NCBI GenBank assembly: GCA_017619735.1
Contig: JAFZRT010000012.1
Coordinates: forward strand, 319 to 64,318
Reading direction: 5' to 3'
Length of the DNA stretch: 64,000 nucleotides
DNA from: Clostridia bacterium
Lineage (GTDB): Bacteria; Bacillota; Clostridia; Christensenellales; CAG-138
Shown here piece by piece: positions 9,477 through 35,553 of the stretch; positions within the stretch are counted from its first letter, which is position 1; every line of letters begins with the position of its first letter. The position numbers and the translations under genes are program-made. The notes beneath the pieces were generated by a model. The model was not told where the DNA came from and did no database searches. It saw only the letters and a list, made by a program, of their open reading frames with translations.

Positions 9477-9583
9477 TGGCGGAGAAGCAGGGATTTACGA
9501 ACCCCGCGCTGCGAGGAGATGATTACATAAGGGCTAATTTACGCAGCGCTTAGAATTTGCTTTGCAAATTCGAGGGTTCAAAT
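9477..9583 (-). repeat. tRNA-linked structured element, copy A
   Basis: tRNA-Ser-like 3' end, ATTT[AC]GAACCC/GGGTTCAAAT outer stem, GCGCTGCG/CGCAGCGC stem and GAATTTGC/GCAAATTC hairpin; shares its scaffold with 12465-12572. Confidence 0.85.
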
Positions 9584-9596
9584 ATGTTATTCAAGA

Positions 9597-9631
9597 AAAT
9601 ACAGACTCCTGCGATGCAGGAGTCTGTATTT
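9597..9631 (-). terminator. Terminator after tRNA-Ser
   Basis: AAATACAGACTCCTGC-GAT-GCAGGAGTCTGTATTT perfect hairpin. Confidence 0.85.
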
Positions 9632-9632
9632 G

Positions 9633-9721
9633 TGGCGGAGCGGGTGGGATTCGAACCCACGGTAGGTTGCCCTACACCTGATTTCGAGTCAGGACCGTTA
9701 TGACCACTTCGATACCGCTCC
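9633..9721 (-). tRNA. tRNA-Ser(CGA)
   Basis: GGAGCGG/CCGCTCC acceptor stem, CCTGA-CTCGAAA-TCAGG anticodon arm, long variable arm, GGTTCGAATCC, CCA. Confidence 0.95.
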
Positions 9722-9863
9722 ACGGTATTTTTGCCTCTCCAAGCCTCCGGAAAAAGGAGAGAATTGGAGGAGAGAACAAACGAGAATATTCAGTTTTCAA
9801 GCCTCAAAAAGCCTAATAAACATAAGGACTTTTTGAGCGGAGCGTTCCAATTGGCTTGAACGT

Positions 9864-9903
9864 TTTCGAGTCAGGACCGTTATGACCGCTTCGATACCGC
9901 TCC
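9864..9903 (-). pseudogene. 5' half of tRNA-Ser(CGA), broken at the anticodon loop
   Basis: 40-bp direct repeat of 9682-9721 with one mismatch. Confidence 0.9.
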
Positions 9904-9918
9904 GTTTGTTACCGATGT

Positions 9919-9947
9919 ATTATACAGCATAGGTCACGGGATTTCAA
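9919..9947 (-). promoter_or_regulatory. sigmaA promoter upstream of the tRNA-Ser 5' half
   Basis: TTGAAA-17 bp-TATAAT on the minus strand. Confidence 0.75.
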
Positions 9948-10000
9948 CTTGATTTCGAAGATATATATCGCCTTCCCGCGTCGGATCCCTTTCGGCAGGA

Positions 10001-10345
10001 TCACTTTTTGCTCTCCTCGAGTATCACGTCGAAGGCTTCGCGCATGGACTTTGTCGCGATCAGGCTGCCGAAGCTGTATTCAAAACCGTTGTATTTGAAC
10101 ACGAGCGTCTTGATAATGAAGCCCTTAAAGCGAAGGCCCTCGGTCTGCGAAAGAGGGATGCGATACAGTACACGGCCGGGCTGGCTTTTGGCGTCGACGT
10201 CCCTTATCGTGAGTTCCCCGCCGTTGACCGCAAGCAGCACCATGCCCCACGTTCCGTTTGGAAGCATGGCGGCATTTCCGCAAAACGCGGCTCCGCGCTC
10301 GTCGCAATAACCGCCCTCAACATATTTCATCTGAGATTTATCCAT
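10001..10345 (-). CDS. Hypothetical protein (114 aa, beta-rich)
   Basis: GGAGG RBS 5 nt before ATG; coding-like composition. Confidence 0.65.
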   Translation of the reverse strand: MDKSQMKYVEGGYCDERGAAFCGNAAMLPNGTWGMVLLAVNGGELTIRDVDAKSQPGRVLYRIPLSQTEGLRFKGFIIKTLVFKYNGFEYSFGSLIATKSMREAFDVILEESKK

Positions 10346-10436
10346 AGCCGCCTCCCGAAATGGTTTTGTCAATTGTATCATAAAGCCGTAACAGTGTCAA
10401 TTGCGGCGGCTAGAGGGTGTGTTGCGGCGTAATTTT

Positions 10437-10504
10437 GAGCGGCGAGATTTACGAACTCCCGCTTCGCATTTTCTTGTGCGTGGTCCGGCTTTTTTGCGCG
10501 AAGC
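10437..10504 (-). repeat. tRNA-linked structured element, partial copy C
   Basis: tRNA-Pro 3' fragment with the same AC insertion, then a GCTTCGC/GCGAAGC stem with 30-nt loop. Confidence 0.65.
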
Positions 10505-10598
10505 TATACAGATACTTTTGGACGACAGAAAAAAGTGTCGTGGAAAGTATCTCCGTCGATACCTTCTACGACATTAAACTCGTTTTTGTTGTCGGGAT

Positions 10599-10793
10599 TC
10601 AGATAAGGTCGAGCATCAATCCCTCGCCCACGTATTGCGGACTGTATTTCAGTCCGAAATACCTTCGCCATTCCTTCTCGCTCACTTGCTTCAATCTCTC
10701 GCTCGCCAGAGTGGAAGTCGGAAACGTCTCTTTCAGATAGCTCGTCACTTGTTCTTTGTACTCGTCTAAAGTCTTCGCTGTAAACTCGTCCAT
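10599..10793 (-). CDS. Small hypothetical protein (64 aa)
   Basis: AAGGAG RBS and TTGACA-17-TACAAT promoter at 10825-10853. Confidence 0.6.
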   Translation of the reverse strand: MDEFTAKTLDEYKEQVTSYLKETFPTSTLASERLKQVSEKEWRRYFGLKYSPQYVGEGLMLDLI

Positions 10794-10857
10794 TCTTCTG
10801 CGCTCCTTCCTTCGCGTTTTCTACATTGTAAGCCGCCTTGTTTTTGGTGTCAAGGCC

Positions 10858-11345
10858 CTATTTTTCGGCGTCGTCCTTGCGCCATGCGACGCGCTCGCCT
10901 TTGAGCCGCTGGTCCTCAACTTCGCTCCTATACTCCTCCATTTCCCTCGTAGCGTGAGCCGCTTCAGCCGCCTTGGCGCGGGCTTACATGTCTTCCATTT
11001 CGGAGTAGCCGCAGTCAGAATGTTCTTTGAGGTAGACTTGGCTCATTGCGCTGTACGCCTTCTCAATGGTGCGCTGGAGCTTGTATATCTTGCCGCTTAC
11101 GGAGGGCTCTCGGGACAGCACTTTCGCCATGCGGCTCACCGTGTCGCGCAACTGGTTTACGAGGCGGGCACGTGCCTTCTGGTTCTTCGGGTTACTGTCG
11201 CGGATGATGCGGTCGAGGAAGGTGTCATCGACCAGCACTTTCTCGACGAGGTGCGCGGCAAGCTCGCTCTCGTACATTGCCCGAGCGTCTTCCACGGTCT
11301 TGTAGCGGTCGTTCGTCTCAAAGACGCGAACGCCATCCTCGCCTA
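10858..11345 (-). pseudogene. Hypothetical gene with in-frame TAA and truncated 5' end
   Basis: ORF 10984-11295 continues in frame past the TAA for 41 codons to TAG at 10858; no proper start. Confidence 0.5.
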
Positions 11346-11555
11346 TTGTCCGACGACCCGAAGATATCCGCTATCTCCGATTTGGGAAGCCCCATGCTCG
11401 TGGGCGCTCTCCCCGTGACAGGCGGGAGCGACGGCGAGGGCAATCTCACGGGCATCACAGACGAGGACGCGGCCTACATCCGCAAACGCATAGTCCACAT
11501 GGGCACCCGTCGCCATCCCGAGGGCTGGCAGATGCTCACGCAAGTTGCCTATTGA
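11340..11555 (+). pseudogene. DUF3846-like C-terminal fragment (phage/IME associated)
   Basis: PKISAISDLGSPMLVG..DGEGNLTGITDED resembles this family; N-terminus absent. Confidence 0.45.
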
Positions 11556-11601
11556 CAACGTGCCGTCCCACGTGATAACATCCGAGACGGAGGTGAGCAC
11601 C

Positions 11602-11778
11602 ATGTCATATAATGCGGAATACAATGCACGCTATAAACGTGAGAAGTACGACCAAATCATGCTACGCGTCCCGAAGGGTATGCGGGAGAAAATCGCAAAG
11701 CGGGCCGCCGAGCTCGGGATGAGCGTCCAGCGGTATCTGATAGAGCTTTTCCTTGCTGATGCGAAGGGAGCCGAATGA
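11602..11778 (+). CDS. Arc/ribbon-helix-helix DNA-binding protein
   Basis: KYDQIMLRVPKGMREKIAKRAAELGMSVQRYL; GGAGGTG RBS; TTGACA-17-GATAAC promoter. Confidence 0.8.
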   Translation: MSYNAEYNARYKREKYDQIMLRVPKGMREKIAKRAAELGMSVQRYLIELFLADAKGAE

Positions 11779-11784
11779 CAAAAG

Positions 11785-11816
11785 AAAAGGGCGGGCTTAA
11801 CGGCCCGCCTTTTTTT
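11785..11816 (+). terminator. Terminator
   Basis: GGCGGGC/GCCCGCC hairpin plus T7. Confidence 0.8.
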
Positions 11817-11904
11817 GTGCTTCTTTGAACGCGGCTATTGCCTTTCGGTGCAGTTTACGCTCGTAATCCTCCGAGAAATGGAGCGTCTCCGCGCGCTCTC
11901 TCGG

Positions 11905-12377
11905 GGATAGGGTTGCAATGGCAGGACGTGGACATTGCGCATGACGTGATACGCGTAACGCGCGACTATGCCTGGAAGACCAACAGCGTCGATACGCTCA
12001 AGACGGCCAACGCGAGGCGGGATATCCCCATCGTGCCCGAGCTCAAAGCGATATTGCTGGAGCATCGTGGGACAGGCAATGCGTATGTGGTGAGCTCGCC
12101 CACAGACCCGAGCAAGCCGATGTGCGAAGCCACGTTCAAGCGCAGATGGAAGTCCATACAGGCGCTCGTCGGGGATGATGTGACTACGCGCACGTTCCGC
12201 AACAATTTTGCGACTGTGCTGTACGACGCAGGCGTGGACGTGTTGACGGCCTCGAAGGTGATGGGACACGCCGACCCGACCACGACCCTAAAGATTTATA
12301 CCGATCTCGACCGAAGCCGCAAGGTTCAAAGAGGATATGAAGCGGTAAGAAATGCGTTCGATTCAAGTGAAAAGTAG
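11905..12377 (+). pseudogene. Tyrosine integrase, C-terminal half
   Basis: GLQWQDVD, KTANARRDIP, RTFR, MGH..IY; the first catalytic Arg box and N-terminal domains are missing. Confidence 0.85.
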
Positions 12378-12390
12378 GCGAAAAGTAGGC
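12369..12390 (+). repeat. Tandem 11-bp GAAAAGTAGGC x2, putative arm-binding sites
   Basis: Exact tandem repeat between the int stop and the att site. Confidence 0.6.
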
Positions 12391-12464
12391 GAGATGTTTC
12401 ACGAAAAGCTAAAAAGCAAAAAGAAAAAGTCTTGATTTTATTAATGAAATCAAGACTTTTTTGT

Positions 12465-12572
12465 TGGTCGGAGCGGCGAGATTTACGAACTCCGCGCTGC
12501 GATCTGCTCCCTTCGGCTCTGTCTGCGTGCCGCAGCGCCGGAATTTGCCCTTGGCAAATTCGGAGTTCAAAT
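12465..12572 (-). repeat. tRNA-linked structured element, copy B
   Basis: tRNA-Pro 3' duplicate with AC insertion; same three stems as copy A. Confidence 0.85.
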
Positions 12573-12588
12573 AACGAGCTACGGAGGC

Positions 12589-12627
12589 CACAACAAAAGG
12601 GAGTGCTTTGCACTCCCTTTTGTTGTG
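12589..12627 (-). terminator. Terminator after tRNA-Pro
   Basis: CACAACAAAAGGGAGTGC-TTT-GCACTCCCTTTTGTTGTG hairpin. Confidence 0.8.
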
Positions 12628-12702
12628 GTCGGAGCGGCGAGATTTGAACTCGCGACCTCCTGGTCCCGAACCAGGCGCGCTACCGAGCTGCGCTACACCC
12701 CG
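12626..12702 (-). tRNA. tRNA-Pro(CGG)
   Basis: CCTGG-TTCGGGA-CCAGG anticodon arm, GAGTTCAAATCTC T arm, CCA. Confidence 0.95.
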
Positions 12703-12830: not shown

Positions 12831-12864
12831 AATTCATACCGGCCCGGATGGGCCGGTATGAATT
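12831..12864 (-). terminator. Hairpin/terminator after tRNA-Thr
   Basis: AATTCATACCGGCCC-GGAT-GGGCCGGTATGAATT. Confidence 0.7.
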
Positions 12865-12939
12865 GGAGCCAATGCAGGGACTCGAACCCTGGACCTGCGC
12901 ATTACGAATGCGCTGCTCTACCAACTGAGCTACATTGGC
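12864..12939 (-). tRNA. tRNA-Thr(CGT)
   Basis: GCCAATG/CATTGGC acceptor stem, GCGCA-TTCGTAA-TGCGC anticodon arm, CCA; GTGACA-17-TATAAT promoter at 12954-12982. Confidence 0.95.
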
Positions 12940-35356: not shown

Positions 35357-35492
35357 GCCTGCTTCGGGGCAGGGTGAGATTCCCTACCGGCGGTAAAAGT
35401 CCGCGAACCCGCTTCACTGCGGGCCGACCCGGTGTGATCCCGGGACCGACAGTGTGTGCCGTACTATCGGCATAAGTCTGGATGGAAGAAGG
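35357..35492 (+). ncRNA. FMN riboswitch (RFN element)
   Basis: CTTCGGGGCAGGGTGAGATTCCCTACCGGCGGT..CCGCGA..CCGACAGT..AGTCTGGATGGAAGAAG; terminator-like hairpin at 35512-35537. Confidence 0.93.
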
Positions 35493-35553
35493 CAATATTT
35501 CGTTCATCTGCCCGGAGACTGCGTCTTCGGACTTTTTATTTCAAGGAGGACAG

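Follow-up and report, generated by a model that had tools for sequence, protein, structure and literature searches.

Behind tRNA genes in a 64,000-nt stretch of contig JAFZRT010000012.1 (assembly GCA_017619735.1), referred to here as the window, lie small DNA units of a kind that recurs throughout the genus of the Clostridia bacterium from which the contig comes. The source genome, G000, amounts to 1.86 Mb and is 92% complete. The units, of 135–165 bp, are probably (at a rough probability of 0.55) small, non-autonomous and tRNA-specific integrative cassettes, inserted site-specifically by a recombinase that acts in trans on a hairpin-forming attachment site. They have a common anatomy, ends tailored to the tRNA gene served, stems that covary, a site that is seen both filled and empty, tandem arrays, and in some cases cargo genes, with no recombinase linked to them. 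An initial annotation made from the sequence of the window had noticed two copies, A and B, and a partial copy, C. All three exist as it described them, and they belong to a real, lineage-restricted, multi-copy class of elements that is much larger than those three.

Read in the sense of the tRNA, a unit as delimited here opens with the 3′ part of a tRNA, which reaches from mid T loop to CCA. Behind it come the terminator-like hairpin P0, which is long and perfect, a spacer of 15–25 nt and a three-way junction. The predicted closing stem of the junction, P1, is made of two copies of the T-loop region, one inverted and one direct, the latter comprising the 5′ strand of the T stem and the T loop, usually with one or two extra bases after TTC. 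Insertion would be a site-specific recombination event placed in the T loop or immediately 3′ of that loop, and the flank shared with the target would be, for tRNA-Pro, AAATCTCGCCGC. The incoming unit would supply a fresh tRNA 3′ end and terminator, and the gene would therefore stay intact, with its old 3′ end pushed outward to lie behind the junction. Repeated insertion would build arrays, and larger versions would carry genes between the tRNA end and P0. We infer that P1 and the two stems within it, P2 and P3, form as folded DNA and act as the element half of the attachment site, on which the trans-acting recombinase would carry out the exchange. By analogy with integron attC and CTX-phage sites, a folded single strand is a plausible substrate.

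The units of the window and an empty site

The minus strand carries all three tRNA genes of the window, each called by ARAGORN: tRNA-Ser(cga) at 9633–9721 (intact; Rfam tRNA 54.5 bits), tRNA-Pro(cgg) at 12626–12702 (intact; 64.7 bits) and tRNA-Thr(cgt) at 12864–12939. Behind the Ser and Pro genes the same order is found in tRNA sense, namely a perfect palindromic terminator-like hairpin, a short spacer and the junction element.

Unit B, whose target gene is tRNA-Pro, spans 12465–12572 on the minus strand and is matched at 12468–12576(−) with 70 bits by R1, the covariance model described below. Its tail (12465–12484), read on the plus strand, is exactly reverse-complementary to the final 20 nt of tRNA-Pro, and its best match is tRNA-Pro(cgg), 50 nt upstream. 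An extra AC (12485–12486) separates the tail from P1, the arms of which lie at 12487–12493 (GAACTCC) and 12562–12572 (GGAGTTCAAAT, pairing back to the start); between them stand P2 at 12494–12501/12531–12538 (GCGCTGCG/CGCAGCGC, with a 29-nt loop) and P3 at 12541–12549/12553–12561 (GAATTTGCC/GGCAAATTC). The P0 of unit B is the inverted repeat that forms a palindromic, terminator-like hairpin at 12588–12628.

Unit A, at 9477–9583 on the minus strand (R1 match 9480–9586(−), 66.3 bits), starts 47 nt 3′ of tRNA-Ser(cga) in tRNA sense. Its tail (9477–9496), in plus-strand reading, is reverse-complementary to the CCA-bearing 3′ end of a tRNA of the Ser(GCT) type, and an extra AC (9497–9498) again lies between the tail and the P1 arm. 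P1 has arms at 9499–9505 (GAACCCC) and 9572–9583, P2 lies at 9506–9513/9542–9549 with a 28-nt loop, and P3 at 9553–9560/9564–9571. The perfect 16-bp palindromic, terminator-like hairpin at 9597–9631, an inverted repeat between tRNA-Ser(cga) and the junction, is read as the P0 of this inserted unit. Partial unit C (10437–10504, minus strand; R1 match 10434–10534(−), 32.2 bits) has a truncated tRNA-Pro tail with tRNA-Pro(cgg) as best match, the AC insertion, one P1 arm and a covaried P2 (10461–10467/10498–10504, GCTTCGC/GCGAAGC) with a 30-nt loop, and lacks P3 and the other P1 arm. It shares with unit B an identical repeat of 23 nt. The three-way junction is the predicted fold, by minimum energy or centroid, of unit A on both strands (z −3.5/−4.3) and of unit B on the minus strand (z −2.1); unit C by itself folds no better than shuffled sequence. 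Within the window a simple 14-nt motif of the units is weakly non-random (three matches against 0.85 expected, with three reached in 6 of 100 shuffles), and the case therefore rests on the wider family.

In G004, a genome of the same genus, the tRNA-Pro gene is intact and has a terminator directly behind it, and next come the GAAAAGTAGGC repeats that the window shows beyond its unit B. When the two loci are aligned globally, one gap of 161 nt (window 12485–12645) opens between homologous flanks, and the boundaries of the gap slide within a 20-nt direct repeat whose copies are spaced 161 nt apart. The 161-bp insert that is absent at the G004 gene comprises the junction, the spacer, P0 and another copy of the tRNA's final 20 nt. 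Next to the tRNA-Pro 3′ copy of unit B stands another hairpin, at 12424–12461, recovered both as an inverted repeat and by a terminator scan, and its homologue in G004 directly adjoins the intact tRNA-Pro. The single gap implies that the unit brings its own tRNA 3′ copy and P0 and that the hairpin at 12424–12461 is the older terminator, now displaced. The idea that such elements are insertions is thus borne out by the empty site, and also by the arrays and cargo treated below.

The family and its distribution

A fourth copy in the source genome, unit D, is split across two contig ends beside tRNA-Ser(gga) and has a P2 in which a T-A pair is swapped for A-T. Searches with a strict pattern found matches in 4 of 13 other genomes of the genus and in none of 47 more distant genomes. 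The covariance model R1 was then built from 18 aligned units, with the structure mapped by hand because MAFFT alignments misplaced P1 and P3. It finds 11 matches in the source genome, behind tRNA-Pro, Ser(cga), Ser(gga), Tyr, Ala, Met, Lys and Trp and at partial copy C; the units at tRNA-Met form an array that runs over contig ends. Across the genus 13 of 14 genomes have matches, from 1 to 21 per genome, with some units scoring on the opposite strand as well. The sole genome without a match, G011, was scored with stricter filters.

Such a search of Clostridia genomes, proposed in the initial annotation, has thus yielded many further copies, and nearly all of them within one genus: in a sample of 151 genomes of the family, R1 matches occur in 2 of the 142 genomes of other genera (G169 and G125). 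A scan of GTDB contigs gave, among the matches listed, mostly chance GAATTCGC palindromes in high-GC genomes, besides matching contigs from metagenome-assembled genomes (MAGs) of rumen and gut origin named as Clostridia or Clostridiales bacterium. At least five Clostridia MAG loci passed the filter (including L044, L054, L066 and L081), three of which duplicate known loci, and at least about five more were judged by eye (L048, L071, L088, L094 and others). In public metagenome contigs a strict pattern occurs at just 5 loci, which add further arrays and cargo and no recombinase. As for known RNA families, Rfam finds nothing on the units even at E values up to 5, so that they do not correspond to an already described Rfam family; apart from the tRNAs and an FMN riboswitch, nothing in the window scores above a gathering threshold.

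Attachment to tRNA genes and tailoring of the ends

The element recurs behind the 3′ ends of tRNAs and where inserted DNA meets its surroundings, an association that the initial annotation had named as support for its idea. In a survey of 41 units in genomes other than G000, 17 start 46–53 nt 3′ of a tRNA on the same strand, and another 7 come after another unit within 9–104 nt. A tRNA lies 191–2760 nt upstream of 7 more, and the remaining 10 have no tRNA within the locus examined, 4 of these having less than 250 nt of upstream sequence. Thirteen tRNA species are served: Pro-cgg, Ser-gga, Ser-cga, Ser-gct, Trp, Tyr, Arg-ccg, Arg-acg, Gly-ccc, Gly-tcc, Lys-ctt, Ala-ggc and Met. Every unit has a full or truncated tRNA tail behind it, and border repeats made by a tRNA 3′ end are the mark of genomic islands and of cis-mobilizable elements (CIMEs).

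It had also been proposed that P1 covaries with the T arm of the local tRNA. This stands for most units: among the 11 of the source genome, P1 and tail fit the upstream tRNA in 8, the tail being compared with 41 tRNAs. It does not hold for unit A, which fits a tRNA-Ser(GCT) and not the neighbouring tRNA-Ser(CGA). In the Lys unit the tail is degenerate past the T loop, and unit D is counted as matching only by way of a contig-end overlap with the contig that carries tRNA-Ser(gga).

Covariation of the folded core

When 24 units are aligned to R1, an alignment fitted to the model and so biased towards the structure, 87.5% of the cells are in standard pairs versus 76.0% in column shuffles, none of which reached the observed value in 500 trials; slid controls gave 23–54%. 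In this alignment P2 is 99.5% paired and both sides have changed in 8 of its 9 pairs, while in P1 six pairs have changed on both sides. The R1 columns of P3 are imperfect, and the covariation of this stem was therefore taken from an independent parse of 51 units, in which stems are mis-assigned in a few rows. There P3 occurs in at least 12 different self-complementary versions (for example GAATTTGC, GAGAATTCGC, GAGAAATCCGC, GAGATTTTCC, TACTTTGGC and GCTTAAACGC), and P2 in at least 10. The covariation first suspected from three copies is consequently found in all three stems. P0 differs in sequence among the units seen and is always a long perfect palindrome at the same position.

The loops are less free than they had appeared. 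Those of P2 had been described as unrelated to one another and, under an alternative, as guide-like; their length is held at 28–32 nt in 49 of the 51 rows (one mis-parsed row has 42 nt and one row has no P2), and their two ends share the motifs TCACGCAAGC ... AAACAAGNAACT in tRNA sense, with the loop of unit A as an outlier. By eye the loops have no complementarity to tRNA, no formal search having been made, and with conserved ends and no visible complementarity they are not obvious guides. The P3 loop is 3–4 nt long in all but 4 of the 51 rows, which have 6–7 nt.

A fixed 2-nt bulge had been put forward as an invariant feature of the element, one whose lack of conservation the initial annotation itself had counted as a refutation, and this has to be given up. 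After the TTC of the T-loop copy there is GT in A, B, C and some Pro units, AT in D, a single A or T in most of the Ser, Trp, Tyr, Gly, Lys, Met and Ala units and several of the Pro units, and nothing at all in an Arg unit. In many units the extra base is mirrored by its complement in the other arm, which gives a perfect P1 of 12–13 bp (examples are found in G003 and G007, in Gly, Tyr and Trp units and in the Met units of G012). With zero to two extra bases, often compensated, it is the extra base in the T loop that is nearly universal, and not the bulge.

The stems are almost wholly Watson–Crick. The 51-unit parse has 1241 Watson–Crick cells against 28 G·T and 22 A·C mismatches in the tRNA-sense orientation, a balance that fits folded DNA slightly better than structured RNA, though weakly so. 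Fold energies are alike on the two strands as well, and for these two reasons the strand that folds cannot be assigned.

Arrays, cargo and a second type of unit

Two to five units stand in tandem behind tRNA-Pro in G001, G003, G005 and G007. Neighbours in these arrays, and in that of L193, often differ in P2, P3 and loops; they are therefore not simple tandem duplicates, which argues for successive insertions. Internal units often keep just the first 12 nt of the tail (AAATCTCGCCGC) and have no P0. Such short tails are consistent with an exchange point within those 12 nt, and presumably only the unit next to the gene needs to restore the tRNA.

Some units carry genes. In the source genome 4 kb lie between tRNA-Trp (C12:33251–33324) and its unit (C12:37316–37429) and encode two proteins, one of 876 aa that has ten helicase-associated (HA) repeats and one of 265 aa. 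The cargo of G001, 2.6 kb between two Trp units whose cores are 98% identical, has genes for a protein of the 23S_rRNA_IVP family, a ribbon-helix-helix protein and a zinc-ribbon protein of 381 aa. A 167-aa open reading frame (ORF) precedes some other units, and others again are preceded by a putative gene for a helix-turn-helix (HTH) regulator, named by eye from its N-terminal sequence with no family search. None of these cargo stretches contains a recombinase gene. At the tRNA-proximal end of the 4-kb Trp cargo there are five direct repeats of about 17 nt (GTTCGTTTGACAGAGGG-like; L189:690–800, on C12 of G000), and at its distal end GCACCC/GGGTGC repeats stand just before P0, with such repeats seen in G001 and G125 as well; the repeats of both ends look like iterons or arm-type protein sites.

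A second type of unit is interleaved with the first in arrays. It occurs behind tRNA-Tyr and tRNA-Ser(gct) in the source genome and behind tRNA-Ser(gga) in G003 (G000:C19:52283–52410 (+); G000:C35, between tRNA-Tyr at 75891–75975 and the unit at 75587–75698; L009:2217–2345). Its plan is an inverted copy of CGAATC and the 3′ strand of the T stem, AAGG, two hairpins, and a direct copy that leads into the tRNA tail; the hairpin sequences are unrelated to those of type 1 and there is no extra T-loop base. The two types overlap solely in pairing the RAATC part of the T loop, which would make this the best pointer to the position of the exchange. A possible third form, a 21-bp inverted repeat of a whole tRNA 3′ end, was seen in L007.

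The search for a recombinase

The tyrosine recombinases of the source genome are one XerS-like protein, two tandem integrases on contig C50, and fragments, one of them in the window. The XerS-like gene (G000:C35:46847–47992 (−), 381 aa) scores best with NCBIfam XerS, at 193 bits and below the cut-off of 267, and is the one tyrosine recombinase shared by all six genus genomes checked. A conserved, perfect 14+6+14 palindrome upstream of it overlaps the start codon in the same six genomes (L203–L208) and is probably the dif-like own site of a one-recombinase Xer system. The C50 pair (G000:C50:24243–26815 (−); 419 and 402 aa) have SAM-like N-terminal domains and a PF00589 match split by an insertion, and a similar tandem pair was noted in G010:C8. 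The five recombinases tested reach 26–75 bits against NCBIfam integron-integrase cut-offs of 265–435 bits, and no integron integrase was found. The arrays start at tRNA genes, and no tyrosine recombinase stands beside them.

Enzymes of other classes were also considered. There are no matches to the Y1 transposase (PF01797) or to a resolvase in the source genome, and Y2_Tnp has no match in the genus, a result made uninformative by a control that also matched nowhere. An IS110 bridge-RNA element was rejected, as PF01548 occurs in G008 only among the 14 genus genomes. No multi-copy repeat of 700 bp or more is present in the source MAG, which is weak evidence given that MAGs lose repeats. A single-copy reverse transcriptase gene (G000:C14:6200–7429 (+), 409 aa) occurs in 11 of 14 genus genomes; its best NCBIfam match is a group II intron reverse transcriptase/maturase at 96 bits, far below cut-off, with weaker Drt and retron matches. 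It too was set aside as a partner, since its distribution does not track the units.

In G125 a unit scoring 31.8 bits lies 4.7 kb from the gene of a 384-aa integrase, on a contig that ends before any tRNA. Relatives of this integrase do not track the units either and were rejected as the enzyme; an integrase-bearing parent with the same type of attachment site was found in none of the 14 genus genomes, and G125 offers one candidate. The window itself contains the C-terminal fragment of a tyrosine integrase (11838–12377, plus strand; PF00589 58 bits, profile positions 42–170 only), behind which two direct GAAAAGTAGGC repeats (12369–12390) and then the terminator follow. The same repeats occur at the G004 tRNA-Pro without an integrase. 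Intact relatives of the fragment lie beside 45–48-nt copies of the tRNA-Pro 3′ end in G008 and G012, the copies in G008 being of 45 nt and about 30 kb apart. The fragment is a remnant of a different, conventional island with its crossover in the anticodon loop, and it is not the recombinase of the units.

Weighing the explanations

Several observations weigh against the view of the units as cassettes moved in trans. The co-occurrence with one recombinase clade that the initial annotation had named as support is not found: in G001, G003, G005, G010 and G013, whose 62 cmsearch rows represent about 57 units, a tyrosine recombinase (PF00589) gene comes within 15 kb of a single unit. G003, the genome richest in matches (21 rows, about 19 units), has three PF00589 matches, none on a unit-bearing contig. 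The palindrome at the XerS-like gene is unlike P1, and a double-stranded circle of 135–165 bp would be a poor substrate for a classical integrase. Recent retargeting is unsupported, as near-identical cores (at least 93%) always serve the same tRNA and the closest pair across different tRNAs reaches 85%. The tail of unit A best matches the tRNA-Ser(gct) gene on contig C19 rather than the gene beside it. Some array neighbours are 98–100% identical and could be duplications rather than new insertions. Finally, neither an excised circle nor an empty site within a population appears in the assembled contigs of four sequencing runs, which are uninformative on excision and expression; none of these contigs joins across unit B, those of the RNA libraries cover tRNAs only, and one DNA-run contig has unit B adjoining different DNA.

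It is unlikely, on balance, that the units are instead passive, CIME-like remnants of integrase-bearing islands or prophages that integrate in tRNA genes as double-stranded DNA and that they have no mobility of their own. The junction would then be the element-side attP arm, with protein-binding or bending sites and a terminator, and small units would have arisen through internal deletion and tandem duplication. A decayed island of the integrase type does sit at tRNA-Pro between C and B, near-identical units do stand side by side, the GCACCC repeats in the Trp-type cargo elements resemble arm-type sites, and accounts of CIMEs and related elements describe well the tandem accretion of decayed elements at tRNA genes (PMC5704250; 10.1101/2020.12.28.424599). 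The integrase of the window, however, is of a type that crosses over elsewhere, within 45–48 nt of tRNA-Pro identity, and no junction unit stands at its G004 and G008 loci. The low-scoring G125 unit 4.7 kb from an integrase would also fit a remnant, but homologues of that integrase (at most 39% identity) are spread over 20 other genomes of the sampled family with only one in the genus. Moreover, arms that bind proteins would be expected to keep their sequence, whereas P2 and P3 change on both sides and yet still pair. The same anatomy also returns in units of 135–165 bp at 13 tRNA species, and array neighbours differ in sequence.

Two further explanations look to the RNA level. That the unit is a structured non-coding RNA gene tied to tRNA operons, acting on tRNA processing, charging or a tRNA-dependent regulator, is improbable. 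Such an RNA could be read in tRNA sense with a tRNA-like 3′ tail, or antisense with a 5′ end that pairs with the tRNA 3′ end, and the covarying three-way junction, a tail identical or complementary to 20 nt of tRNA and flanking hairpins that would serve as bidirectional terminators are all in keeping with it. Against this, no promoter-like site was found in or before the units, a strong terminator-like hairpin stands ahead of the junction in the units seen, internal array members have no terminators, the almost purely Watson–Crick stems balance G·T (28) and A·C (22) between strands, and Rfam is silent; nor would an RNA gene explain the exact presence or absence of one unit with a duplicated tRNA end, or the cargo. 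It is very improbable indeed that the units are products of reverse transcription, with the tail resembling a primer-binding site and the break in the T loop marking a stall on modified tRNA. The tRNA-derived stretch does stop in the T loop with one or two untemplated-looking bases, and the single-copy reverse transcriptase is widespread in the genus. However, that gene is missing in G013, in G008 and in G004, which has 19 matches, and occurs in the match-free G011; the tRNA homology runs past the extra bases into the T stem, and the opposite P1 arm often mirrors those bases. An origin in phages was likewise rejected, since IMG/VR gave no exact match to the pattern and unit B had no blastn match among 50,697 phage records.

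Relation to known systems

Integron cassettes may be short or carry genes, stand in arrays at one fixed site and have no recombinase of their own, and their attC sites conserve structure over sequence, with imperfect inverted repeats that close a variable middle and sometimes leave bases unpaired. The units resemble them in being recombinase-free cassettes arrayed next to a fixed site, with a structure-conserved site. They differ in that the fixed site is the T loop of many tRNA genes and not one attI beside intI, that the closing stem fits the target, that a replacement tRNA end and terminator are supplied, and that the unpaired bases vary. As regards the attC boxes (R''/L''–L'/R', with conserved RYYYAAC/GTTRRRY and conserved extrahelical bases), P1 contains GAAC/GTTC because it copies the T loop, and its unpaired bases number 0–2 and are often compensated. 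Integrative mobile elements exploiting Xer (IMEX) of the CTX type use a folded single-strand attP that host Xer recombinases join to dif, and they form tandem arrays. Here the likeness is in two inverted target copies about 85–100 nt apart that pair into a duplex target, in the lack of an own recombinase and in the arrays; the units, in contrast, target the tRNA T loop and not dif, the site at the XerS-like gene differs from theirs, they are far smaller than a phage, and no phage genes or phage database matches go with them.

These likenesses allow a bolder reading, held tentatively and with odds well short of even, in which the units are the cassettes of an unrecognised gene-capture system akin to integrons or CTX phage. 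A small circular single strand would fold so that P1 rebuilds a duplex copy of the tRNA T loop, a trans-acting recombinase would exchange one strand with the tRNA gene, replication would fix the insert, and the cassette would repair the tRNA with its own tail and terminator. The attC-like idea of the initial annotation lives on in this reading, without its fixed bulge and guide loop. If this were so, each suitable tRNA gene would be an attI-like platform for gene-less and gene-carrying cassettes alike, and the existence of two unrelated unit families with the same logic would mean that the principle, and not the sequence, is under selection.

Cassettes of the simpler kind favoured here, inserted site-specifically with help in trans, also share traits with elements of other classes. 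CIMEs and tycheposons are flanked by whole and partial tRNA 3′ ends, carry no integration genes and are stacked at tRNA genes (PMC5704250; 10.1101/2020.12.28.424599), and in all of these respects they resemble the units. They are, however, decayed, kilobase-sized and defined by att repeats alone, whereas the units are 135–165 bp long, have a covarying junction and a hairpin, serve 13 tRNA species within one small lineage and have no recognisable autonomous parent. MITEs (miniature transposable elements with inverted repeats) and repetitive extragenic palindrome doublets forming hairpins (REPINs) are comparable in being small, gene-less, hairpin-forming, multi-copy, lineage-restricted and presumably moved in trans; the insertion of units, in contrast, is confined to one position in tRNA genes, and their ends are re-tailored for each target. 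The RAYT/TnpA type of transposase (Y1 HUH, PF01797), by which REP/REPIN and IS200/IS605 elements are recognised, has no representative in the source genome. By eye there is no target-site duplication around P1, the flanks of which differ on the two sides in A, B and D, and the duplicated tRNA end is parted from one P1 arm by the spacer and P0. The units thus share features with integron cassettes, IMEX, CIMEs and MITEs or REPINs, but lack at least one defining feature of each. A search of full-text literature, supplements lying outside it, found no description of such units.

Significance

tRNA genes are the classic landing sites of islands and prophages, and to our knowledge the elements known to target them bring their own integrase. 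This genus has dozens of units of 135–165 bp that copy the T loop once in each orientation, give back both tRNA and terminator, sometimes carry cargo and have no linked recombinase. If active, the units would be the smallest known site-specific integrative elements and a new route by which genomic islands are seeded and extended. Their attachment site would be a natural one re-tailored to many targets, which bears on programmable insertion, and the missing enzyme is a well-defined target for a search. If they are only relics, they would nonetheless show that insertions at the tRNA genes of rumen and gut Clostridia turn over at a high rate, and would explain assembly breaks at tRNAs in these genomes.

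Other features of the window

At 9838–9905 on the minus strand, 116 nt upstream of the intact gene, the 5′ half of tRNA-Ser(cga) is present a second time in truncated form. It is 98% identical over 40 nt as far as the anticodon loop and continues for about 27 nt to an acceptor-like CGCTCCGC; ARAGORN does not call it. Directly ahead of it is a promoter-like site (9947–9919 (−), 11/12 sigma-70-like). The decayed island between C and B contains a 77-aa Arc/CopG-like ribbon-helix-helix ORF (11545–11778 (+), Pfam Arc 25 bits), and three small ORFs at 10001–10381(−), 10599–10793(−) and 10984–11295(−) have no Pfam match. The FMN riboswitch mentioned above (35357–35497 (+), Rfam RF00050, 87.9 bits) is unrelated to the units.

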